UHGV virus genome: UHGV-0268707
DNA length: 20,927 nucleotides
Origin: a virus
Strand: one strand, 5' to 3'
Part shown: in pieces, positions 1 through 20,557 of the stretch
How the letters are laid out: each line of letters starts with the position of its first letter
Position numbering within the stretch: position 1 is the first letter of the stretch
The notes under the pieces: generated by a model
Database searches by the model: none
Told to the model about the DNA's origin: nothing
What the model saw: the letters and a program-made list of their open reading frames with translations, nothing else
Program-made: the position numbers and the translations under genes

Positions 1-669
1 TACAACGAAGTTGCCCGTAAAAACGCAAAATCAACCCTGTCATCGGGTATTGGTCTGTATATGACGGGGGCAGATGGTGAAGGCGGGGCTGAGGTGTATT
101 CAGCCGCAACCACGCGTGATCAGGCCAGAATCGTGTTTGAAGACGCCAAAAATATGGTCAGAAAAGCCCGGTCGACACTCGGGCGGTTGTTTGACTTCAA
201 CAAGCTGGCGATTTACCAGGAGCAGAGCGCATCAAAATTTGAACCGCTTTCCTCGGATGCAAACAACCTGGACGGTCTGAACATCCACTGCGCCATTATT
301 GATGAGCTGCATGCACATAAAACCCGTGACGTGTGGGACGTTCTGGAAACGGCAACCGGTGCCCGTCTGCAGTCCCTTTTATTTGGTATCACCACGGCAG
401 GGTTTAACAAGGAAGGGATTTGTTACGAGCAGCGTGATTACGCCATCAAGGTATTGCGTGGCTATAACAGCGACGTGGAGGGCGCTGTAAAAGACGACTC
501 TTACTTTGCGATCATTTACACCCTCGATGAGGGAGATGATCCGTTTGATGAAACGGTCTGGCAGAAAGCGAATCCTGGCCTGGGCATCTGTAAACGCTGG
601 GATGATCTGCGTCGTCTGGCGAAAAAAGCGAAGGAGCAGGTCTCTGCGCGGGTGAATTTTTTTACCAAG
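1..669 (+). pseudogene. terL: Prophage terminase large subunit, N-terminal portion (5' partial at window edge; reading frame interrupted by insertion of the element at about 662-669)
   Basis: Frame 1 is open from base 1. Its translation (YNEVARKNAKST...TTRDQARIVFEDAKNM...LFGITTAG...WQKANPGL...ARVNFFTK) aligns colinearly with the intact terminase at 13978..15639 (FIEVPRKNAKST...AVSRDQARIVFDDARQM...LFAITTSG...WIKANPNI...WVEMLTK). Similarity stops at codons FFTK (661..669); downstream the frame runs into AT-rich non-homologous sequence. Confidence 0.8.
659..669. repeat. Putative attL core (tTtTTACCAAg)
   Basis: Sequence TTTTTACCAAG at the exact point where terminase homology ends; it matches ttCTTACCAAa at the right junction, with 7 bp identical (TTACCAA). 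Confidence 0.45.
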
Positions 670-797
670 AAAGTAACATCACGCCGTAACAACAGTGCGA
701 TCTGTCCTGATTTTTTTAGTAACCAAATGAAAGAAAAAGATTTTTTCTTGTTCGTCGTTTTTGTTTTTTCTGGAAGGTTCTGGCTGTTTTCATCATT

Positions 798-821
798 TGT
801 GTATTGCACTGTGTATTGCAA
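798..821. repeat. Tandem 12-bp repeats TGTGTATTGCAC/TGTGTATTGCAA, candidate integrase arm-type or RDF binding sites (left end)
   Basis: Two adjacent copies directly upstream of the int start codon. The same motif recurs at 16061..16084 just inside the right end. Confidence 0.45.
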
Positions 822-839
822 AAACGGGTTATAAATCAC

Positions 840-2063
840 ATGGCGCTAAACAAACTGAGCGATAAAAAACTTCGTTCCCTGCTTGGGCGCAGGAGTGAGA
901 GGCAGGAAACCATCGCTGATGGTAACGGGCTTTCGGTACGGGTCAGTAAATACGGATGTGTTAGTTTTGTTTTCTTTTACAGACTGGCGGGAAGGGGGAC
1001 CGCGCCCATCTGGCTGACACTTGGAAAATATCCTGATCTGAGTCTCAAATCAGCGAGAGAGATGCGCGATCAGTGTCGAACCTGGCTTGCGGAGGGCAGA
1101 GATCCACGGATTCAGATAAAAATTGAACGGGAAGCCACCTTGCAACCTGTTACCGTTCGTGAGGCACTTGAATACTGGCTTGATAATTATGCAATGGATA
1201 AGCGTAGGGGAGCAGAACATATCAGGCAGTGCTTTGGTAAACATATTTATCCGGTGATTGGTCATGTACCACTTAGTGATTGCTCTATATCTATGTGGAT
1301 CAAGTGTTTTGACAAAATAAAAAAAGTAGCACCTGTACAGGCCGGAGCTTTGTTGCGTATATCAAAACAGGCGCTTAAATTTTGTAGGGTAAGAAAATAC
1401 GCGATTAGTCATGAAATTGATGATCTTGAGGTCTGTGATGTGGGAAAAAAGTCTGCGCGAAGAAGCAGGGTTTTAACAGATGATGAAATCAGAGATTTAT
1501 GGCGAAGTATTAATACTGATTATGACAATCACGAATTATCATATGAAAACCGAATTATTTTACGTTTCCTGGTAGTTTTTGGTTGCCGACTGTCAGAAGT
1601 ATTACTGTCGTCCTGGGGAGAGTGGGATTTTGATAAGAAATTATGGCGCGTTCCCGCTGAACATAGCAAAAATGGCAGGGAAATAATCAGACCGATTCCT
1701 GATGGCATGTTTAACTGGTTAGTTACGTTAAAAAAAATAACAGGTAACAAAGAAAATGTGATTGGGTTTGATATGCGTCAGTGTACGGCAAGCGTAACTA
1801 TCGGTAAGACATGGAAAAGGATGAAACACTCGGAGAAATGGACGGCGCATGATATGCGAAGAGTGTTTGCCACAAAACTAAGTGATCATGGTTTTGAACA
1901 TAATGTGGTTGAACAGTTGCTTGGGCACACATTAGGCGGTGTTGCCGGGGTTTATAACAGAAGCCAGTATATGGACAGAAAAAAAGAAGCTATGAACTGG
2001 TGGTACGACTACCTGAATAAGCTAATTAGTGGTGACGGTAATGATTCAAATAGTTACGCGTGA
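840..2063 (+). CDS. int: Tyrosine-type site-specific integrase (P4-like, N-terminal arm-binding domain)
   Basis: Translation starts MALNKLSDKKLRSL...GNGLSVRVSKYG (typical P4-family arm-binding N-terminus). C-terminal catalytic signatures: R in FGCRLSEVL, HDMRRVFATKL (H-x-x-R), and LLGHTLGGVAGVYNRSQY (catalytic Tyr). The ORF-track start at 804 overlaps the arm repeats, so the ATG at 840 is preferred. Confidence 0.9.
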   Translation: MALNKLSDKKLRSLLGRRSERQETIADGNGLSVRVSKYGCVSFVFFYRLAGRGTAPIWLTLGKYPDLSLKSAREMRDQCRTWLAEGRDPRIQIKIEREATLQPVTVREALEYWLDNYAMDKRRGAEHIRQCFGKHIYPVIGHVPLSDCSISMWIKCFDKIKKVAPVQAGALLRISKQALKFCRVRKYAISHEIDDLEVCDVGKKSARRSRVLTDDEIRDLWRSINTDYDNHELSYENRIILRFLVVFGCRLSEVLLSSWGEWDFDKKLWRVPAEHSKNGREIIRPIPDGMFNWLVTLKKITGNKENVIGFDMRQCTASVTIGKTWKRMKHSEKWTAHDMRRVFATKLSDHGFEHNVVEQLLGHTLGGVAGVYNRSQYMDRKKEAMNWWYDYLNKLISGDGNDSNSYA

Positions 2064-2262
2064 AGAACTTGAAAATGATAAAACAATCGACAGGATGATT
2101 AAGGAAGATGAATGTGCATGGTTAACTGCTCTTGGCAGGAGACACAGATCGTTACTTGAAAAGGAAGGAAAATTTCCACGAAAAATATGTATTGGCCCAC
2201 AAACAAAAGTCTGGCGCTTATCTGAGGTGCTGGAATGGGTAAAGGGTGAATGGAAAACCTGA
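2041..2262 (+). CDS. AlpA-family (excisionase-like) HTH regulator
   Basis: Small ORF overlapping the int 3' end; motif ECAWLTALGRRHRSLLEKEGKFPRKICIGPQTKVWRLSEVLEWV fits the AlpA/Xis HTH pattern (HTH followed by FP...W...EV..W). Start codon uncertain (GTG 2029 or ATG 2041). Confidence 0.55.
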   Translation: MIQIVTREELENDKTIDRMIKEDECAWLTALGRRHRSLLEKEGKFPRKICIGPQTKVWRLSEVLEWVKGEWKT

Positions 2263-2285
2263 GCTAAAGTAAATGAGATATAATC

Positions 2286-2311
2286 AACCCGTCTTTTGGC
2301 GGGTTTTTTTA
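2286..2311 (+). terminator. Candidate rho-independent terminator
   Basis: AACCCG-tcttttgg-CGGGTT followed by TTTTT. Confidence 0.35.
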
Positions 2312-2325
2312 TAGGTGATATTTTT

Positions 2326-2604
2326 ATGCAAAAATTTATTTATCCTACACCCGAAGAACGCATTCAGATTCTGAAAGAGCATGGCGAACCGTATGATCGC
2401 CGTATACGCGAACATGAGTGTGCCAATCGTACCGGGCTTTCAAGAAGCAGACGTTGGGTACTTGAACAGGAGGGAGCATTTCCTGCTCGTGCTCATTTAG
2501 GGAAAGTGTCTGTTTCCTGGTTGCTCTCTGATGTGCTCTGGTGGGTTATGCATCCGCCAGGAGTAAAGGAAGTAAACAGCCCATACAAAAACGCCAATAA
2601 GTAA
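2326..2604 (+). CDS. AlpA-family HTH transcriptional regulator
   Basis: ANRTGLSRSRRWVLEQEGAFPARAHLGKVSVSWLLSDVLWWV matches the AlpA family signature. ATG at 2326 is preferred over the upstream TTG. Confidence 0.6.
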   Translation: MQKFIYPTPEERIQILKEHGEPYDRRIREHECANRTGLSRSRRWVLEQEGAFPARAHLGKVSVSWLLSDVLWWVMHPPGVKEVNSPYKNANK

Positions 2605-2613
2605 TTACCGACA

Positions 2614-2643
2614 ACCCCGCACCACGCAATGCGGGGTTTTTTG
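2614..2643 (+). terminator. Rho-independent terminator
   Basis: CCCCGCA-ccacgcaa-TGCGGGG stem-loop followed by TTTTTT, directly after the stop at 2604. Confidence 0.6.
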
Positions 2644-2661
2644 TATGTGAGGTAGAAAGCG

Positions 2662-3243
2662 ATGAATAAAAATATTGCCGTGACGGGCAAGGGTGACGCA
2701 CGTCATGTGAAAAAATTCTGTGATATTCGTGATCTGGTCGTTCTGCGCTTTGATGGTGTGAACGTTCGCGTGGTGTATCTGAACGGCGATCCGTGGTTTG
2801 TTGCAAAGGATGTTTGTGCGGCGCTTGAATTATCCAATTCACGCATGGCGTTGCAAGCTCTGGATGATGATGAAAGTAATACCGTAACTTTAACTTACGG
2901 TATTCGCGGAAATCCAAATCATAGCGTCGTTTCTGAATCTGGTTTTTACAAGCTGATTGCCAGAAGTCGCAAAGCTGCTACTCCTAGCACGTTCGCCCAT
3001 CGTTTCAGTAACTGGGTATTCAGAAATGTGATACCGGGTATCAGAAAAACGGGGGCTTATGGTATCCCGTGGGGCGCATTACAGGATTTTTCCCGCCGCA
3101 AAGAGCAATACCAGATAAGTGCCAGCGAGAAGGGGAGGGAGCTACAGGCATGTAAGCGCAAAAAGCGTGAGCTGGAGGAAGAAGAAAAAAGGCTGATACG
3201 TGAATACCAGCCTGAGTTTTACTTTGGTGAGCGTATTCAGTAA
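2662..3243 (+). CDS. Bro-N domain protein (antirepressor-like)
   Basis: N-terminal roughly 130 aa carry Bro-N hallmarks: LRFDGVNVRVVYLNGDPWFVAKDVCAALELSN...LDDDE...SESGFYKLIARSRKAATPSTFAHRFSNWVFRNVIPGIRKTGAY. C-terminus is charged and coiled. Confidence 0.8.
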   Translation: MNKNIAVTGKGDARHVKKFCDIRDLVVLRFDGVNVRVVYLNGDPWFVAKDVCAALELSNSRMALQALDDDESNTVTLTYGIRGNPNHSVVSESGFYKLIARSRKAATPSTFAHRFSNWVFRNVIPGIRKTGAYGIPWGALQDFSRRKEQYQISASEKGRELQACKRKKRELEEEEKRLIREYQPEFYFGERIQ

Positions 3244-3523
3244 CCACACGCGGTGTTGATTATACGGTACATCGTGTTGACCGGGAAGCTACCCACCAGC
3301 AAGGCAAAATCTTCTGCTAAAAAATGACATATGGCCAGTCGTCCGGAAAGCATGAAATTTTACAAAAATGGAAAATGAAGATTTTTATTGTGCTGGTGGG
3401 TAAAAACAAAAAGCGCCCCGTTGCCGGAGCGCCCTTGCGAACAATTAACCTACTGCGCAAAAAATGAATCTGTGCGGGGGGATTATATCAACCGTGGTCG
3501 AAATGACCATAGTTGCAGGATAA

Positions 3524-3556
3524 CAGGCAAAACAAAGGCCACCCGCTACGGTGGCC
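3524..3556 (-). terminator. Candidate rho-independent terminator for the leftward regulator transcripts
   Basis: GGCCACC-cgctac-GGTGGCC hairpin (3537..3556); on the minus strand it is followed by TTTGTTTTGCC. Confidence 0.35.
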
Positions 3557-3659
3557 CCTCGACACAAGCTACACGTTATCCCCAACGCATGAGCATAACC
3601 AACAATGCCACATTTACGGCTGGTGGGCAATGTGATCAGTGTGCTGGCTTGCTGGTGGG

Positions 3660-3857
3660 CTATTCCTGCTCTTTAGCATCGCCATGCTGCGATGTTTTCC
3701 AGGTATGCGATCCCATTTTTGTGCGCTTGTACTCTTTAAGGAACCTCTCAAGGACAAACGCACATGGCGCGAATCTTTCCTGTTCATGTTCGCTTACCGC
3801 GTTTTTGCGTTGTTTTTTCCTAGATGAAGATAATTTCTTTAATGATTTGTCAGTCAT
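3660..3857 (-). CDS. Small basic hypothetical protein (possible paralog of the adjacent regulator)
   Basis: 65-aa lysine-rich ORF whose last four codons (KEQE-stop) and about 12 nt of DNA are shared with the gene at 3915..4094. Weak RBS; function unknown. Confidence 0.35.
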   Translation of the reverse strand: MTDKSLKKLSSSRKKQRKNAVSEHEQERFAPCAFVLERFLKEYKRTKMGSHTWKTSQHGDAKEQE

Positions 3858-3914
3858 CGTAGATACCTGTAACCCAGTTCACCGCAGTTCACCGCACCAC
3901 GGCGCTGGTGACGG

Positions 3915-4094
3915 TTACTCCTGCTCTTTGGCCTTCCGGCGCTGGCGGCGTTTGATCTCACCTTCAAGCGCCGAAACGATAAATTGCCCAGTGCTTTCGC
4001 CTTCTTCCTTTAAATTTTCTACAGCGTCAGCTATTGCATGGGGTACTCGTGCCTCAAGTTTTTTGGATTTTCCATTAACTGCTTTCGTTGCCAT
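3915..4094 (-). CDS. Small ribbon-helix-helix-like DNA-binding protein, candidate repressor of the element
   Basis: 59 aa, MATKAVNGKSKKLEARVPHAIADAVENLKEEGESTGQFIVSALEGEI, consistent with a beta-strand plus two helices (RHH/Arc-like). AAGGA RBS 8 nt upstream of the ATG at 4094; reads away from the operator-containing promoter region. Confidence 0.5.
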   Translation of the reverse strand: MATKAVNGKSKKLEARVPHAIADAVENLKEEGESTGQFIVSALEGEIKRRQRRKAKEQE

Positions 4095-4115
4095 ATCTGA
4101 TTTCCTTGTTATTAG

Positions 4116-4195
4116 GTGGCTGACAGTATACACACAAGAAAATAGAAAAACACTATTGACGTGGCTGACACCTGTTACTAGTATAGTGGCTGACA
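4116..4195. repeat. Three direct copies of GTGGCTGACA (operator-like)
   Basis: Copies at 4116..4125, 4161..4170 and 4186..4195; the second and third extend to GTGGCTGACACCT and bracket the -35/-10 of the rightward promoter. Confidence 0.5.
4156..4184 (+). promoter_or_regulatory. Sigma70-like rightward promoter (TTGACG, 17 nt spacer, TAGTAT) overlapped by operator repeats
   Basis: TTGACG at 4156..4161 and TAGTAT at 4179..4184 with a 17-nt spacer; sits upstream of the small-ORF/primase operon. Confidence 0.45.
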
Positions 4196-4293
4196 CCTTT
4201 ATTGAGGTAATCGATGAAAAGACAAAGCCCGCAGGTGCTACCAACACCAACGGGCTTCTAACCACCAACGATAGCGAAAGTATCGAGGTAGCT

Positions 4294-4497
4294 ATGTTAA
4301 ATCATACCACACACCCGCAAGGGCGGGACTCGCACAACCTGAATAAATACATCTGGCGTTTTATCGCTCTGAGCACGGCACAACCGCGCGTGATTACCAT
4401 TGAGGCCACCAGCGAACAGGAAGCCCGCCAGCAATCCCCGGCTGGCTGCGTGATGATATTCGCCGCCCGTATTCTCCAGGAGGTGCGCCATGATTAA
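4294..4497 (+). CDS. Hypothetical protein (first gene of rightward operon)
   Basis: GAGGT RBS 5-9 nt upstream of ATG 4294; stop overlaps the next start. The 369-aa ORF-track call 3388..4497 in the same frame is rejected. Confidence 0.45.
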   Translation: MLNHTTHPQGRDSHNLNKYIWRFIALSTAQPRVITIEATSEQEARQQSPAGCVMIFAARILQEVRHD

Positions 4498-4705
4498 CCT
4501 GTCACTTACCGACCTTAACCGCATTCAGTTTCGTGAGAAATTCACCGGGCAGTTGCTGGTCAATGTGGATAAAGGTCGCGTGGTGTGTAATTACCACCTG
4601 CCAGATGAAGCCATTGTCGCAACAAGGGAATCATTACAGGAACTCGCAGAACGTGCCGGAATGATTAACGCGAATATTCAGGGGGGGGTGAGACATGTGC
4701 AATAA
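4490..4705 (+). CDS. Hypothetical protein
   Basis: AGGAGG RBS upstream of ATG 4490; start overlaps the preceding stop and its stop overlaps the next start. Confidence 0.55.
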   Translation: MINLSLTDLNRIQFREKFTGQLLVNVDKGRVVCNYHLPDEAIVATRESLQELAERAGMINANIQGGVRHVQ

Positions 4706-4940
4706 CATCCGTCCGGACGCAGCTGCCGAAGCTATCAGAACGCTGATGCACGCGCTGATTGATATTTCATGCACGGTAGCAACCGCAGAAAAACACATTA
4801 CCAGAGAGACGGAATATACAGGGGCGATAATCCCGCATTCGCTGGCTTACGCACAGCTTACCGCTGATATGGCGCTGAATGAGGCTAAAGCCATCCTGAT
4901 TGCTGATTGTGAAAATGGCGGGGGCGATTATGCGAAATAA
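4695..4940 (+). CDS. Hypothetical protein
   Basis: ATG 4695 preceded by a G-rich RBS; overlaps neighbours on both sides. Confidence 0.5.
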   Translation: MCNNIRPDAAAEAIRTLMHALIDISCTVATAEKHITRETEYTGAIIPHSLAYAQLTADMALNEAKAILIADCENGGGDYAK

Positions 4941-5148
4941 ACATGATATTGAAGACCTGGCATTTGAAGCCCTGCACTCTGCGAAAAAAATCAGGGAAGT
5001 CGTCAATATGTGGATGAACAGCCTTAGCACCGATAAATCCGATAGCAGAGAAGAAATTCTTATTTCTTTGTTGTTAGACCTGGCAAATACACAGGTTTCT
5101 CTGACATCTGATATTGAGCTCGCCGCTAAAAAGCTGCCTCTGGAGTAA
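4927..5148 (+). CDS. Hypothetical protein
   Basis: ORF in the operon; start ambiguous (TTG 4900, ATG 4912 or ATG 4927). Confidence 0.45.
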   Translation: MMRNKHDIEDLAFEALHSAKKIREVVNMWMNSLSTDKSDSREEILISLLLDLANTQVSLTSDIELAAKKLPLE

Positions 5149-5154
5149 AAAAAC

Positions 5155-5469
5155 ATGAAAAAGAAAAATTCTGGCTTTACTGCCAGCGGCCTTCCTCGGC
5201 CTGAAATCCGCCCCGGCGATATTTTCCGGGATAAATACGGCAGCACGATAACGATTAAAACCGTCGATGATTTTCGTGTGACCTATATCCGCGAAGGTTA
5301 TGCGCATCCCTGCGTGTCGTCGCATATGCGCTTTGAAAGGGAATTCACCCTGGTAAGCAAAGCACCACCAGCGGACTTAAGCGACATCGACAGAATCATG
5401 CGCGTTACAGGTATGGAACGCATTAAGGCAGTACGTGAAATTATTCGTGAACGGGGAAAGGCAAAATGA
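5155..5469 (+). CDS. Hypothetical protein
   Basis: 104-aa ORF; its stop overlaps the primase start (ATGA). Confidence 0.55.
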   Translation: MKKKNSGFTASGLPRPEIRPGDIFRDKYGSTITIKTVDDFRVTYIREGYAHPCVSSHMRFEREFTLVSKAPPADLSDIDRIMRVTGMERIKAVREIIRERGKAK

Positions 5470-7586
5470 AACTGGCGCCGAACGTAAAACTGTTACCGAA
5501 AGATAAAGGCGAGGATGCAGTGATTTTTGCGGGGGATGACGCATACAGCCACGCAGAGCATTACATGCAGGGCGGAGAAGCCAGAAAGCGCGGCGACAAA
5601 ATACCACCTGTTTATCTCGGACGGCGTGACCTGGGTAATCTGGAAAACCTGCGTATTGTGGATGATGGTCGGTCACGCGCCATCGTCAGACGTGCCGGAA
5701 AACTGGATGACAAACTGGCGCTACAGATTGAAACCCTGCTGGCAGTGGCTGGTGTTAAGGAAGCCTGTTTTTGTGACGAGAACGGCGATTTACTGGAGGA
5801 CTGGACACCACAGCTTGCCCGACTGAAAGACGAATACGAGCGCGGGGAAAGTCTGGTGTTGCCCTTAAAGAAAAAAATCACAGAAAGCCAGGGCGATGAT
5901 GAATTAAAGCCCCGCGTTGAAAGCCGCGCCGATGGTGTTTTCTGGGTAACGCCAAAAGTGGACAAGCAGTCAGGCGAAATTATCCGGCCTGAGACGTGGT
6001 TATGTTCTCCGCTTGAACTACTGGGAACGGGGACGATCGGTAAAGAGCATTACCGCGTGATGCGCTGGAAAAAGCCAGCAAACCATGAAGTCATCACAAT
6101 GGCGATCCCATGTGGTGGCATTGGCGACCGTGACGGCTGGCGGTTGCTGAAAGACCACGGCCTGAACGTGACAACCAACGGCAAATACAGGGCTATCCTG
6201 GCTGACTGGATGCAGTTAAGCGGAAACCATGAGGAATGGCAGTTAAGCACAACAACGGGCTGGCATTTTGGCGCGTACATCATGCCGGACGGTTCGGTCA
6301 TTGGTGATTGCGAAAAGCCAGTCCTGTTTACCGGAAAAACGGCTGCTGTTAATGGTTATTCCGTGGCAGGAACGGCGGAGGGCTGGCGCGATACCGTTGC
6401 GCGGCTGGCTGGTGGTAATCCGTCCATGATGCTGGGTGTGGCGGTATCGTTATCTGCACCATTAATCGGGCTGGTGGGCGCTGACGGCTTCGGGGTACAT
6501 CTTTTCGAACAGTCATCGGCAGGTAAGACCACAACGCAGAACATCGCATCAAGTTTATGGGGAGAGCCGGACGCGCAGCGGCTGACCTGGTACGGCACAG
6601 CGTTAGGTATCGCCAACGAAGCAGAGGCACACAATGACGGGCTTTTACCCCTGGATGAAATAGGCCAGGCCGGAAACGCGCGGGAGGTGTCCACGTCAGC
6701 CTATACGCTGTTTAACGGTTCCGGGAAATTACAGGGGGCAAAGGACGGCGGCAACAGGGAGATAAAACACTGGCGAACGGTGGCAATCAGTACCGGAGAA
6801 ATGGACGTTGAAACATTCCTCAAAACGGAGGGGATAAAAGTCAAGGCGGGGCAGCTTGTCCGTCTGCTTAACGTGCCGATGGAAAAAGCCACGCAGTTTC
6901 ACGAATACAGCACCGGAAAGGCACACGCAGACGCGTTAAAGGATGCCTGGACAGAAAATCACGGGGCGGCGGGGCGTGAGTGGGTTAAATGGCTGGCAGA
7001 CCACCAGCAGGAGGCAAAGGATACGGTAAGGGCATGCCGTGAGCGGTGGCGCAACCTGATACCGGAGAGCTACGGCGAACAGGTTCACCGTGTGGGGGAA
7101 CGATTTGCCATGCTTGAGGCGGCGTTAGTGTTGTCCGGTCATATTACTGGCTGGGATGAGCAGGAATGCCGCGATGCCATACAGCATAATTTTAATGCCT
7201 GGGTGAAGGAGTTCGGCACGGGTAACAGGGAATTTAAACAGATGGTTGAACAGGCAGAAGCTTTTTTAGCGTCGTTCGGATTCAGCAGATACCTTCCGTG
7301 GCCCAATACCGACGAGCGTGATTTACCGATTAAAGAACTTGCCGGATACAGAAAGGGGAGTATCAGAAACGAAGATGACGAGTTCCGTTTTTACACGTTC
7401 CCGCATGTATTTGAGGGTGAGATAGCACAGGGATTTAATCCGTCTCACTTTGCCCGCGCGTTGAGTGCTGCCGGAATGCTGGAAGCGGGTAACGATCGCC
7501 GTTACAAGAAAAAGGCGCTCGGCAAAATTGGGGGGAAGCAGCATGTTTTTTACGTGCTGATGTTCCAGCCTGAGGCAGAAGATTAA
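5466..7586 (+). CDS. Replication initiation primase/helicase-like protein (DUF927-type P-loop NTPase)
   Basis: 706 aa. Central region TTTGWHFGAYIMPDGSVIG...GVHLFEQSSAGKTTTQNIASSLWGEP carries a Walker A-like GKT motif, and GLLPLDEIGQ a Walker B-like hhhhDE. Matches remembered DUF927 primase-helicase proteins of P4-like/PICI elements. Followed immediately by iterons. Confidence 0.75.
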   Translation: MKLAPNVKLLPKDKGEDAVIFAGDDAYSHAEHYMQGGEARKRGDKIPPVYLGRRDLGNLENLRIVDDGRSRAIVRRAGKLDDKLALQIETLLAVAGVKEACFCDENGDLLEDWTPQLARLKDEYERGESLVLPLKKKITESQGDDELKPRVESRADGVFWVTPKVDKQSGEIIRPETWLCSPLELLGTGTIGKEHYRVMRWKKPANHEVITMAIPCGGIGDRDGWRLLKDHGLNVTTNGKYRAILADWMQLSGNHEEWQLSTTTGWHFGAYIMPDGSVIGDCEKPVLFTGKTAAVNGYSVAGTAEGWRDTVARLAGGNPSMMLGVAVSLSAPLIGLVGADGFGVHLFEQSSAGKTTTQNIASSLWGEPDAQRLTWYGTALGIANEAEAHNDGLLPLDEIGQAGNAREVSTSAYTLFNGSGKLQGAKDGGNREIKHWRTVAISTGEMDVETFLKTEGIKVKAGQLVRLLNVPMEKATQFHEYSTGKAHADALKDAWTENHGAAGREWVKWLADHQQEAKDTVRACRERWRNLIPESYGEQVHRVGERFAMLEAALVLSGHITGWDEQECRDAIQHNFNAWVKEFGTGNREFKQMVEQAEAFLASFGFSRYLPWPNTDERDLPIKELAGYRKGSIRNEDDEFRFYTFPHVFEGEIAQGFNPSHFARALSAAGMLEAGNDRRYKKKALGKIGGKQHVFYVLMFQPEAED

Positions 7587-7607
7587 CCCCCTGTGTGAGG
7601 TGAAAAG

Positions 7608-7732
7608 TTGCGGGTTATGCGGGTTATCCTGTGTATAAGTGCATTAACTGTATGAATAAAAAGGAAATCAATAACCCGCACGTAACCCGCAAAACGGCAG
7701 TTATAACCCGCAAAAGTGCGATTATAACCCGC
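7608..7732. repeat. Iteron cluster 1 (putative origin): 2 inverted and 4 direct copies of TAACCCGCA flanking an AT-rich stretch
   Basis: GCGGGTTAT x2 at 7610..7627, AT-rich 7630..7670, then (A/G)TAACCCGCA at 7671, 7682, 7703 and 7723 (spacings 11, 21, 20 bp), immediately downstream of the primase gene. Confidence 0.6.
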
Positions 7733-7796
7733 AGAATTTCACAGTAAGGGTTTAAACAAGCGTAACTATCAACGTTAAAACCGGAGAGCAGAAAGC

Positions 7797-15720: not shown

Positions 15721-15874
15721 GCGGGTTATTTGAGTGGTGTTTGCGGGTTATTTTGAATGTCTTGCGGGTTACATTCTGGCTGATATTTAGATACGTTGTT
15801 TTTTAACGTATTGATATTAAAGAGTAAAAAATACTTAGCACGCGAAGATAACCCGCTAACCCGCATAACCCGCA
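15721..15874. repeat. Iteron cluster 2: 3 inverted copies (GCGGGTTAT/C), an AT-rich spacer and 3 tandem direct copies of TAACCCGC(A), followed by a (TA)6 tract
   Basis: GCGGGTTAT at 15721 and 15743, GCGGGTTAC at 15764 (spacing 21-22 bp); AT-rich 15781..15840; ATAACCCGC-TAACCCGC-ATAACCCGC at 15848..15873; TATATATATATA at about 15884..15895. Same motif as cluster 1. Confidence 0.6.
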
Positions 15875-16049
15875 CTGTTTTGTATATATATATACGAAAA
15901 ATTGCATTCAGGGGGGGATCGAAATTTCTACTGCCTCTTATCTCTTTGAGTGCTCACCTCGTCAGATTGTTACACACAAGAAATAAAAAATGCTTCGCGA
16001 TGGTAGGTCGAATCACTGTATCAAAAAACGGTGTGTATCAGCATTAAAA

Positions 16050-16084
16050 CAATACAGATACGTGTATTGCGCTGTGTATTGCTC
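16050..16084. repeat. TGTATTG-containing repeats near the right end (one inverted copy plus two tandem 12-mers CGTGTATTGCGC/TGTGTATTGCTC)
   Basis: Near-identical to the tandem repeats at 798..821; the palindrome CAATACA-gatacg-TGTATTG lies at 16050..16069. Confidence 0.45.
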
Positions 16085-16153
16085 GATGATTTATAAAGAC
16101 TGTTTTTTCATGTTAAATGATTGATATACAGGTGATTTTAAAAAACTTGAAAT

Positions 16154-16894
16154 ATTCTTACCAAACACATGAATGTGTGGGTAACAGCAGAGTCTGCCTG
16201 GATGGACATGATTAAGTGGGAGAAATGCGAATATATTGCCCCACGACATGAGCTGAAAACGTATCCCATGTGGGTCGGCGTCGACCTTGCTCATAAGATT
16301 GATATCTGTGCGGCGGCAAAACTCTGGCGAACCGATAACGGACATGTTCATGCTGATTTTAAATTCTGGCTCCCGGAAGGACGGCTGGAGCGGTGCTCGC
16401 GGCAGCAGGCAGAACTTTACCGGAAATGGGCGGAGATGGATAAGCTCATCCTGACGGATGGTGATGTTATCGATCATGCTCAGATAAAAAGTGACTTACT
16501 GGAATGGATTGGTGGTGAAAACCTCAGGGAACTGGGATTTGACCCGTGGAGTGCAATGCAGTTCAGTCTGGCGCTGGCTGAAGAAGGTATACCGCTGGTG
16601 GAAGTTCCGCAGACGGTCCGCAATCTGTCAGAGGCCATGAAGGAAACGGAATCACTGGTCTATGCCGGACGTTTCCATCACAGTAATCACCCGGTCATGA
16701 ACTGGATGATGTCTAACGTTACGGTAAAACCGGACAAAAACGACAATATCTTCCCGAATAAATCCACGCCTGAAGCCAAAATCGACGGCCCTGTTGCGAT
16801 GTTTACAGCAATGAGCCGGATGCTGGTCAATGGCGGTGAACCGGAGCCGGATCTGTCTGAACACCTGATCAGTGTTGGTATCCGCTCGCTTTAA
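16154..16894 (+). pseudogene. terL: Prophage terminase large subunit, C-terminal portion (continuation of the gene interrupted at 669)
   Basis: Translation from 16154 (ILTKHMNVWVTAESAW...GVDLAHKIDICAAAKLW...NIFPNKSTPEAKIDGPVAMFTAM) aligns with the C-terminal half of the intact terL at 13978..15639 (MLTKRFNIWCQGATPW...GLDLSSTSDISSVCYAF...NIKPNKKKSSNKIDPSVAALMAF). The join with 1..669 is in frame (VNFFTK then HMNVW). Confidence 0.8.
16155..16165. repeat. Putative attR core (ttCTTACCAAa)
   Basis: TTCTTACCAAA at the point where terminase homology resumes; shares TTACCAA with the left junction. Confidence 0.45.
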
Positions 16895-18971: not shown

Positions 18972-20195
18972 ATGGCTGATGTTAAAGATGTGGAACAGGT
19001 CGCGCAGGAGTTGCAGCGGAAGTTTGACGATTTTAAGGAAAAAAACGACAAACGTATCGACGCGATCGAGCAGGAAAAGGGAAAACTTGCCGGAGAAGTG
19101 GAAACCCTCAACGAAAAACTGACTGAACTGGAAAATCTGAAAAGCGATCTTGAAGCTGAACTGGCTGAAGTCAAGCGTCCGGCAGGCGGCACGCAAAATA
19201 AAGTTGCCAGTGAACACAAAGAAGCGTTTATCGGATTTATGCGCAAGGGGCGTGAAGACGGTCTGCGTGAGCTTGAGCGTAAGGCGCTGCAGGTGGGCAA
19301 TGATGAAGATGGTGGTTATGCCATTCCGGAAGAACTGGATCGCACCATTCTTACGCTGCTGAAAGATGAGGTGGTGATGCGCCAGGAAGCCACTGTGATC
19401 ACCCTCGGTGGCTCGGATTATAAAAAACTGGTGAATCTGGGCGGCACAACGTCCGGATGGGTGGGGGAAACGGATGCACGTCCGGAAACCGCCACCTCAA
19501 AACTGGGGCTGATTGAACCCTTTATGGGGGAAATCTACGGCAACCCGCAGGCCACCCAGAAAATGCTCGATGACGCTTTCTTCAATGTGGAAGACTGGAT
19601 CAACAGTGAGCTGGCGCTGGAATTTGCCGAACAGGAAGAAATTGCCTTTACCAGTGGCGACGGCAGCAAAAAACCAAAAGGTTTTCTGGCTTACGAGTCC
19701 ACCGATGAAGATGACAAGACCCGTGCGTTTGGCAAACTTCAGCACATTGCTTCCGGTGCGGCTTCCGGCGTGACTGCCGATGCGATCATTAAACTGATTT
19801 ACACCCTGCGCAAGGCGCACCGCAGCGGCGCGAAGTTTATGATGAACAACAGCAGCCTGTTTGCCATTCGTCTGCTGAAGGATAACGACGGAAATTATCT
19901 GTGGCGTCCGGGTATTGAGCTGGGTCAGCCTTCTTCTCTGGCAGGGTATGGCATCGTTGAAAATGAGCAGATGCCGGATATTGCCGCCGATGCAAAAGCC
20001 ATTGCGTTTGGTAACTTCAAACGCGGCTATACCATTGTTGATCGTATCGGCACCCGCATCCTGCGCGATCCTTACACCAACAAACCGTTTGTGGGCTTTT
20101 ATACCACCAAGCGAACCGGCGGTATGCTGGTGGATTCTCAGGCGATTAAGCTGATGAAAATTGGGGCCGCAACCCGCCAGAAAGCCGCTGCGTAA
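18972..20195 (+). CDS. Major capsid protein, HK97 family (helper prophage)
   Basis: N-terminal coiled-coil delta region, GDGSKKPKGFLAYES and GNFKRGYTIVDRIGTRILRDPYT motifs; strong RBS. Confidence 0.9.
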   Translation: MADVKDVEQVAQELQRKFDDFKEKNDKRIDAIEQEKGKLAGEVETLNEKLTELENLKSDLEAELAEVKRPAGGTQNKVASEHKEAFIGFMRKGREDGLRELERKALQVGNDEDGGYAIPEELDRTILTLLKDEVVMRQEATVITLGGSDYKKLVNLGGTTSGWVGETDARPETATSKLGLIEPFMGEIYGNPQATQKMLDDAFFNVEDWINSELALEFAEQEEIAFTSGDGSKKPKGFLAYESTDEDDKTRAFGKLQHIASGAASGVTADAIIKLIYTLRKAHRSGAKFMMNNSSLFAIRLLKDNDGNYLWRPGIELGQPSSLAGYGIVENEQMPDIAADAKAIAFGNFKRGYTIVDRIGTRILRDPYTNKPFVGFYTTKRTGGMLVDSQAIKLMKIGAATRQKAAA

Positions 20196-20239
20196 TGCGG
20201 TTTTTTATGCCCGCACAGTGTTGCGGGCAGGAGTTTCTG

Positions 20240-20557
20240 ATGGCAGCAATAGTGGAAAAACTCAGGGCGCAGTGCCGTATTGATACAGATGATGCAACTG
20301 ATGATGAGTTACTGATGCTGTATTTCCGGGCTGCCTGCCGCAAGGCAGAAAATTTTATCAACCGTAAGCTTTATGAGGAGACGGTGCCGGAGGGGGATCC
20401 AGAAGGGGTGCTTATAGCTGATGATGTTTTGCTGGCGCTTATGTTGCTGGTCGGGCACTGGTACGAAAACCGGGAAAATTCCTCAGATGTCAGCAAGGCA
20501 CCAATCCCGTTTGGCTTTTCTTCTCTGCTGGAGCCTTATCGTTTTATTCCTTTGTAG
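20240..20557 (+). CDS. Head-tail connector protein (gp6-like)
   Basis: About 105 aa immediately after the capsid gene; pattern LRAQCRIDTDDATDDELLMLYFRAACRKAENFI...VLLALMLLVGHWYENRE typical of gp6-like connectors. GGCAGGAG RBS upstream of ATG 20240. Confidence 0.7.
   Translation: MAAIVEKLRAQCRIDTDDATDDELLMLYFRAACRKAENFINRKLYEETVPEGDPEGVLIADDVLLALMLLVGHWYENRENSSDVSKAPIPFGFSSLLEPYRFIPL

Follow-up and report, generated by a model that had tools for sequence, protein, structure and literature searches.

A capsid-forming phage satellite with an iteron origin split into two modules, the candidate second module lying beside attP

The DNA analyzed in this study was a stretch of 20,927 nucleotides (referred to as the window) from the virus genome UHGV-0268707, in which a capsid-forming phage-inducible chromosomal island (cf-PICI) of 15,486 bp (669-16154) was located inside the large terminase gene (terL) of a lambdoid prophage. 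As judged from sequence, the replication origin of this island is an iteron origin, an already known type, and the new part is its split into two modules: module A beside the initiator gene rep, and module B at the distal end, beside the attachment site. Module B showed homology to an origin module, origin-type anatomy, constraint on its iterons, and co-occurrence with the cognate rep and module A. From these observations we infer, with moderate confidence, that module B is bound by Rep and acts in cis as a second module of the island's iteron-type replication origin, or as a module similar to the cis-acting crr of phage P4.

Results

Anatomy of the two iteron clusters

Module B (cluster 2) began with three phased iterons, GCGGGTTA(T/C), on the plus strand at 15721, 15743, and 15764 (15721-15771), with a spacing of 22 and 21 nt and T, T, and C as the following base. 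These were followed by an AT-rich spacer of 77 nt (15772-15848; 70% A+T), a candidate unwinding element, and by three tight tandem iterons on the minus strand at 15849, 15857, and 15866 (15849-15873; spacing of 8 and 9 nt), which read TAACCCGC on the plus strand. A (TA)6 tract (15883-15894) came directly after the tight iterons. A first-pass annotation of the same DNA had described these repeat elements (three phased copies at 21-22-nt spacing, an AT-rich spacer, three tandem copies, and (TA)6); all of them were present, at essentially the coordinates given. Module A (cluster 1; 7610-7732) consisted of tight iterons at 7610 and 7619 on the plus strand, an AT-rich spacer of 45 nt, and phased iterons at 7672, 7683, 7704, and 7725 on the minus strand.

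The window contained 12 exact copies of GCGGGTTA, where 0.62 were expected and none of 100 dinucleotide-preserving shuffles gave more than 3; all 12 were within 7610-7732 or 15721-15873, six per cluster. The reverse complement of cluster 2 was colinear with cluster 1, running from the tight tandem iterons through the AT-rich spacer into ATAACCCGCAAA units phased at 21-22 nt, and an 18-nt perfect inverted match was shared between the two clusters (7609-7626 and 15857-15874). The earlier claim that one motif is used in both clusters in a mirrored architecture was borne out by these comparisons. The 41-nt stretch from 15798, in the spacer of module B, was the second least stable duplex in the window (top 0.02%), and the spacer of module A was among the least stable 0.25%. 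A site resembling the consensus of integration host factor (IHF), TATCAATACGTTA, was found within the spacer of module B on the minus strand (15804-15816), and the neighboring block was conserved in the cassette alignment. A search of 15500-16300 against Rfam at a permissive threshold gave a chance microRNA as the sole match (21 bits against a gathering score of 119) and no credible structured RNA.

The island's own terL (13978-15639, plus strand) was the final gene before module B. The distance from module B to the integrase sites of the P arm was 165 nt, and that to the att core 275 nt. Known origins of Staphylococcus aureus pathogenicity islands (SaPI) and PICIs lie immediately downstream of rep. 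Cluster 1 was in this position, and module B began 8,135 nt past the rep stop codon (7586).

Homology to the origin of EcCIEDL933 and layouts in E. coli

In EcCIEDL933, the prototype cf-PICI, both modules were found after rep: module A came first (two tight iterons, AT spacer, and four phased iterons), and module B, of the inverse layout and ending in (TA)5, was ~55 nt past it. In an island-to-island BLAST analysis, module B of EcCIEDL933 (11488-11641) mapped at 80% identity to positions 15739-15892 of the window, spacer and TA tract included; a (TA)5-8 tract was present in all module B cassettes, including this adjacent one. Rep together with module A, and the segment from ssb through terL, were colinear between the two islands. 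Because module B of EcCIEDL933 maps to cluster 2 while the remaining island is colinear, cluster 2 is, on this comparison, homologous to the second half of an origin that is bipartite and palindromic; this half has been displaced by ~8 kb and was not newly invented. The right end of EcCIEDL933 (L082; ~19860-20290) had neither module B nor the sequence that follows it in the window, and carried four or five copies of GGCGCGGTAACTnnnTGATAT, most of them followed by a small hairpin.

A query in which the 3' end of rep plus module A was joined to module B matched 301 out of 5,426 complete E. coli genomes, and layouts were counted in an evenly spaced sample of 60 of these. Modules A and B were adjacent in 28 genomes and split between two separate places in 22, and module B alone (orphan) was present in 10. 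Rep with module A but without any module B was not found in the 60 sampled genomes; module B accompanied its cognate rep and module A in 50 out of 50. Five split rows of this census were verified directly. The same layouts were found in 40 IMG/VR loci; these were mostly predicted prophages, and no excised or packaged circle joining module B to attP and int was captured among them.

In split islands with the same Rep and module A, module B was located at the far right end, 6.8-10.5 kb from module A. These islands were integrated at hpt, dinD, thiM, clpS, yifB, and prophage terL, and their cargo varied (cf-PICI head genes, classical PICI genes, or three large hypothetical proteins). In each of them, module B led into a common tail of ~110-165 nt, past which the sequence was specific to the att site. 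In the window this tail was 15895-16061, between module B and the attP arm, and it was common to islands with different att sites: its identity was 72-79% over ~90-110 nt in L083-L090, and it was absent from EcCIEDL933. It contained short hairpin-like palindromes with seemingly compensatory changes between islands, for example GGGATCGAAATCCC and CCCATTGCTTATGGG in relatives, and could hold sites for AlpA/Xis, IHF, or integrase.

Constraint on the iterons of module B

Eight module B cassettes from E. coli islands at different att sites were aligned, and variable columns were counted and compared by a Fisher test. Only 1 of the 48 iteron columns was variable, against 46 of the 105 non-iteron columns inside the module (p = 1.2e-8); outside the module, the left flank had 27 variable columns of 40 and the tail 67 of 123. 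The phased iterons were unchanged across all eight islands. These counts show strong constraint on the iterons of module B. Together with the homology to EcCIEDL933 and the strict co-occurrence with rep and the rep-proximal origin, they lend support to the earlier proposal that cluster 2 is a crr-like or alternative origin site for the same initiator.

Rep and its predicted recognition of the iterons

The rep gene (5466-7586, plus strand) encoded a predicted self-loading helicase-initiator of the SaPI type, with the domain DUF927 (Pfam, E = 1e-45) and similarity to the "Pathogenicity island protein" of PDB 8tch (E = 4e-15). In this family, iterons are read by a C-terminal winged helix (PMC9371898, PMC6092414). 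The C-terminal 106 residues of Rep tracked iteron identity. Among islands with the same iteron, identities were 94-98% for the helicase core and 89-95% for the C-terminal domain; with an iteron differing by one base (L032) they were 71 and 68%, and with an unrelated iteron (L008) 71 and 44%, respectively. A SaPI origin has at least two iterons per side of an AT-rich center, in opposite orientation, and one hexamer is thought to bind each side (PMC9371898, PMC6092414). Module B had this layout by itself: three plus-strand iterons, the 77-nt spacer of 70% A+T, and three minus-strand iterons. Homology between Rep and the alpha protein of P4 was rejected: the best BLASTP match had an E value of 0.007 over 54 residues, and the domain of Rep was DUF927, not Toprim, D5_N, or Pox_D5.

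Iteron copies with one mismatch were enriched across the window (39 against 15.8 expected, with the 12 exact copies counted among the 39). In the interval from int to the following gene, CTTTTGGCGGGTTTTTT (2293-2309) was 82% like the extended iteron GTTTTTGCGGGTTATTT and was located in the window's least stable stretch of duplex (start 2304); this may be an operator for Rep, or the resemblance may be due to chance.

Island, attachment sites, and host gene

The right junction of the island was the attR core TTACCAA (16148-16154), as defined by alignment to an intact phage terL; phage homology restarted at ~16151. The same heptamer formed the attL core (662-668) and was followed by a P' arm-site pair (799-819) and the gene for a P4-family integrase (840-2063, plus strand). 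Since the crossover was placed at TTACCAA in this alignment, the island corresponds to 669-16154. On the right, a tandem pair of 12-nt direct repeats, GTGTATTGCGCT GTGTATTGC (16062-16082, plus strand), was read as the P-arm integrase arm-type sites. The 21-nt direct repeat at 799-819 and 16062-16082, with two 12-nt units in each copy, flanked the core on both sides, and the format and spacing of these pairs were as in the annotated attP arm repeats of P4. This repeat was rejected as the att core itself because the terL alignment placed the crossover at TTACCAA. No tRNA or tmRNA was found at the island end.

The location of cluster 2 between terL and attR had been correctly recognized in the first-pass annotation, as had its position in the circular form: in the excised circle of 15.5 kb, module B would be directly upstream of attP and int, and crr of P4 has the same position beside the arm repeats. 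Modules A and B would then be roughly opposite each other, separated by 52 and 48% of the circle.

The integrase gene was followed by genes for helix-turn-helix regulators, a Bro-N protein, an Icd-like protein, and a DUF4222 protein; the middle part contained rep, cluster 1, and the genes for SSB and PerC; the right part encoded an HK97-type capsid protein, protease, portal, connector proteins, HNH, TerS, and TerL, and ended with cluster 2. Between ssb/perC and the capsid gene, three open reading frames (ORFs) on the opposite (minus) strand (7941-8450, 8488-8844, and 8850-9356) had no Pfam match, and could be accessory or defense cargo of the island.

The terL gene of the prophage was split by the island: the ORF at 61-834 contained the ATPase domain and the beginning of the nuclease domain, and that at 16169-16894 contained the remainder of the nuclease domain and was followed by prophage portal, protease, and capsid genes. 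With the gene interrupted (61-668 and 16155-16894) and the island co-oriented, no prophage TerL would be possible before excision of the island. PICIs integrated in prophage late genes are a known configuration, the helper-embedded PICI (HE-PICI; Mageeney et al. 2023, PMC10111431). The island of the window resembled these in being co-oriented in a prophage late gene (terL) and in having a P4-family integrase. The likeness was one of context only: that paper places ori downstream of the primase and describes no distal iteron module.

Proximal and distal arrays in other lineages and in P4

In most cf-PICI relatives from other genera, iterons formed one long palindromic array beside rep, for example ++-----++---. 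In two lineages (Rosenbergiella and Proteus), a second, inverted array of the island's own iteron word was found ~0.5 kb from the fis-side island end. The Rosenbergiella island L003 had the iteron GTGCGGCA in proximal and distal arrays and an AAA_25 helicase as its initiator. Its distal array (11701-11842) was an inverted copy, 96.5% identical, of 142 nt of the proximal origin (3927-4068), 7.8 kb away. Such a high identity points to a recent duplication or to ongoing gene conversion between the two origin copies, and, as the array is a copy of the island's own ori, to an origin separate from that of the E. coli case, with the same position seemingly reached independently. Among the Proteus islands (L010, L012, and L018), the iteron was GGTGCACA, which includes TGTTCACC of P4. 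The initiator of L012, a cf-PICI relative of Proteus mirabilis at fis, was 40% identical to P4 alpha over 776 residues (full length); TGTTCACC octamers were present in both of its arrays (1690-4141 and 11960-12060), giving a P4-type replicon inside a capsid-forming PICI. Possible distal arrays were also noted in Pasteurellaceae (L079, L080, and L068), and the gene beside the "proximal" array of L080 was not a replication gene.

In the P4 record the order is alpha, crr, 117 nt, an arm-repeat pair, core, an arm pair, and int, with the ori iterons 4.7 kb away; octamer arrays were found at 4314-4585 and 9310-9413, and crr is named there as the "cis required region for replication". P4 and the window therefore both have two arrays of one initiator's motif kilobases apart (4.7 kb in P4 and 8.1 kb in the window), and the iterons of these arrays run in both orientations; the gene for the initiator is followed by one array, and one is near the tandem 12-nt arm repeats of attP (117 nt for crr and 165 nt for module B), and the window also has a P4-family integrase and attP layout. 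On the other hand, alpha and Rep had no meaningful similarity; crr consists of two 120-bp direct repeats, in contrast to the single inverted module B; the single crr adjoins both the alpha gene and attP, with ori in a third location; and the cis requirement, established for P4, is only presumed here for module B. The analogy with the ori and crr pair of P4, drawn in the first-pass annotation, consequently holds as architecture, with crr beside the attP arm and a Proteus relative that has a true P4 alpha homologue showing the same layout, and does not extend to the initiator, which is of the SaPI type and not detectably related to alpha.

Orphan copies of module B

Strict co-variation, in which one initiator would always bind both arrays, was considered as a general rule. 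It held in the three lineages with resolved initiators (GCGGGTTA, GTGCGGCA, and GGTGCACA) and failed in two orphans. L083, which is a classical PICI integrated at clpS, had a D5_N/DUF5906 primase and GGTAGACA iterons (swapped module, 3202-5200); in L092, the same terL-embedded cf-PICI as in the window, an AAA_25 RepA-type helicase with AAAGTGGGG iterons was present (swapped module, 7321-8930). Both kept a perfect GCGGGTTA module B. These orphan copies were 94-96% identical to a cognate module B, and cognate copies differed among themselves by up to 20%, which argues that the orphans are young. In the two cases examined, they look like by-products of replacement of the rep module, and the failure of co-variation may be attributed to this recent replacement. 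Modules A and B, conserved on either side of variable cargo, may serve as recombination joints.

Discussion

In each module, an AT-rich spacer that melts easily separates tight tandem iterons from helically phased iterons facing the opposite way, and this is the layout used for the loading of SaPI/PICI-type Rep hexamers. In the island of the window, module B is parted from module A by the whole cargo, as in about a third of the sampled E. coli genomes with the cassette. After excision, Rep would bind the six GCGGGTTA iterons of module B via its C-terminal domain, as at module A. Module B would then act in cis, either as a second site for Rep loading and melting or as a distance-independent partner of module A, in the manner of crr with ori in P4, probably through Rep-Rep looping. 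The presence of distal arrays with matching iterons in islands with unrelated initiators (L003 and L012) supports this proposal.

Several observations weigh against a second origin module. A DnaA-box consensus, TTATACACA, was found in module A (7630-7638, minus strand), and in 7 of 8 islands the consensus TTATNCACA, with N as its sole variable position, was separated by 4 nt from the tight iterons of this module. It was absent from module B in 10 of 10 cassettes, which had the IHF-like site and the TA tract instead. This suggests that host DnaA participates at module A only, and because of this non-equivalence, module B may not be a stand-alone origin. If the separated modules fired only outward, the circle would be left incompletely replicated, so that "two half-origins" would need bidirectional modules or the firing of only one. 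The many relatives with all iterons beside rep indicate that the distal position is not required for such replicons, and the orphans (~17% of cassette-bearing E. coli genomes) that module B persists, at least briefly, without its Rep. Furthermore, the E. coli sample was clonally biased, with many O157:H7 genomes in the adjacent class.

Of the other explanations, the one that survived best, possible but doubtful in our estimation, is that Rep does bind module B and that the main role of this module is at the neighboring attP, not in DNA synthesis. The module might prevent re-integration or promote excision for as long as Rep is there; it might shield int from transcripts reading through from the late operon; or it might be a fork barrier or terminus roughly opposite module A. 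Its proximity to the P-arm sites and the core (165 and 275 nt) fits such a role, as do the distal arrays of L003 and L012 within ~0.5 kb of the right end, the crr of P4 abutting the attP arm, the IHF-like site, and the 52:48 division of the circle; with a distal array copied separately, in inverted orientation, from its own ori, L003 seems to have reached this position independently. However, module B is beside module A and far from attP in EcCIEDL933-type islands and in many other genera, so that proximity to attP is unnecessary for keeping the module; a full origin layout with a very unstable spacer would be superfluous for a simple binding or roadblock site; and in 15500-16300 promoter-like sites (2 against 2.2 expected) and terminator-like sites (none) did not exceed chance.

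A role of module B in negative control of copy number, by titrating Rep or by handcuffing to module A, as with P1 incA and further additional iteron arrays of plasmids, is improbable. Its iterons are the same as those of the origin, it is outside the rep-proximal origin, and it strictly co-occurs with the cognate rep and module A, all as expected for a control array. Nevertheless, an easily melted AT-rich center between opposed iterons is unlike a plain copy-control array of the incA type, which has no unwinding element; in many islands module B is contiguous with module A as one palindromic origin; and satellites replicate explosively once induced, with a small gain from tight control.

Still more improbable is a functionless remnant, a copy of the origin that the insertion of cargo, or recombination, had moved away and that has since traveled with the conserved right-end cassette. 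Orphan copies beside unrelated rep modules, the high mosaicism of PICI modules, and the shared use of the cassette to link variable cargo with variable att/int modules would agree with it; the iterons, however, were essentially invariant while surrounding columns varied by 44-68%, none of the 50 sampled genomes with this rep and module A lacked module B, matching distal arrays occurred with three unrelated initiator families, and the orphans, at 94-96% identity to a cognate copy, are young. A cos or pac site was rejected because the cassette is common to cf-PICIs, classical PICIs, and islands without packaging genes; no lambda-type cosN was found in the module B cassette.

The proposed Rep-bound second origin module may be compared with known origins. 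The SaPI/PICI origins described by Ubeda, Fillol-Salom, Mir-Sanchis and colleagues share with it a SaPI-type DUF927 Rep and short opposed iteron sets around an AT-rich center, seen here in both modules. They differ in being a single unit immediately downstream of rep: the window has a second complete module 8.1 kb away beside attP, and even the origin of EcCIEDL933 is a double, palindromic unit (A plus B). No description of a distal or second PICI origin, or of the double ori of EcCIEDL933, was found in the searchable literature, the coverage of which is incomplete. The plasmids R6K (gamma, alpha, and beta) and P1 (incA and incC) are known to have additional binding sites for their own initiator at a distance of kilobases from the main array of iterons; these interact through looping or handcuffing mediated by the initiator, and they activate distant origins (R6K) or restrain initiation (P1). 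The initiators, R6K pi and P1 RepA, are not helicases and are unrelated to the Rep of the window. Such additional sites consist of single iterons or plain arrays, whereas module B is a full, inverted origin module and has an AT-rich center of its own.

A broader and rather unlikely interpretation is that satellites with unrelated initiators (DUF927 Rep, AAA_25 helicase, and P4 alpha) have convergently placed a second origin module, one that binds the initiator, directly beside attP; this would physically couple replication to site-specific recombination and make the split origin a general design principle of integrative satellites, not an accident of cargo insertion. If so, the initiator at attP could disable re-integration and in this way ensure that the excised circle is replicated and packaged; alternatively, termination and resolution of replication could be defined next to attP.

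The origin of PICIs and cf-PICIs is currently viewed as one compact unit beside rep. In a large group of E. coli islands it appears to be bipartite, and the present results suggest that the second module can work, or at least is always retained, 7-10 kb away beside attP. They also suggest that comparable proximal-plus-distal layouts go with initiators of three unrelated families, one of them represented by a P4 alpha homologue. If module B were dispensable, the finding would shrink to a detail of annotation. In the cloning of minimal replicons, constructs of rep and module A alone may under-perform. For the annotation of islands, module B marks the right end, and modules A and B as possible recombination joints bracketing the cargo would help to explain the mosaic evolution of these satellites. 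Module B also provides a handle for asking whether satellite replication is coupled to excision and integration.
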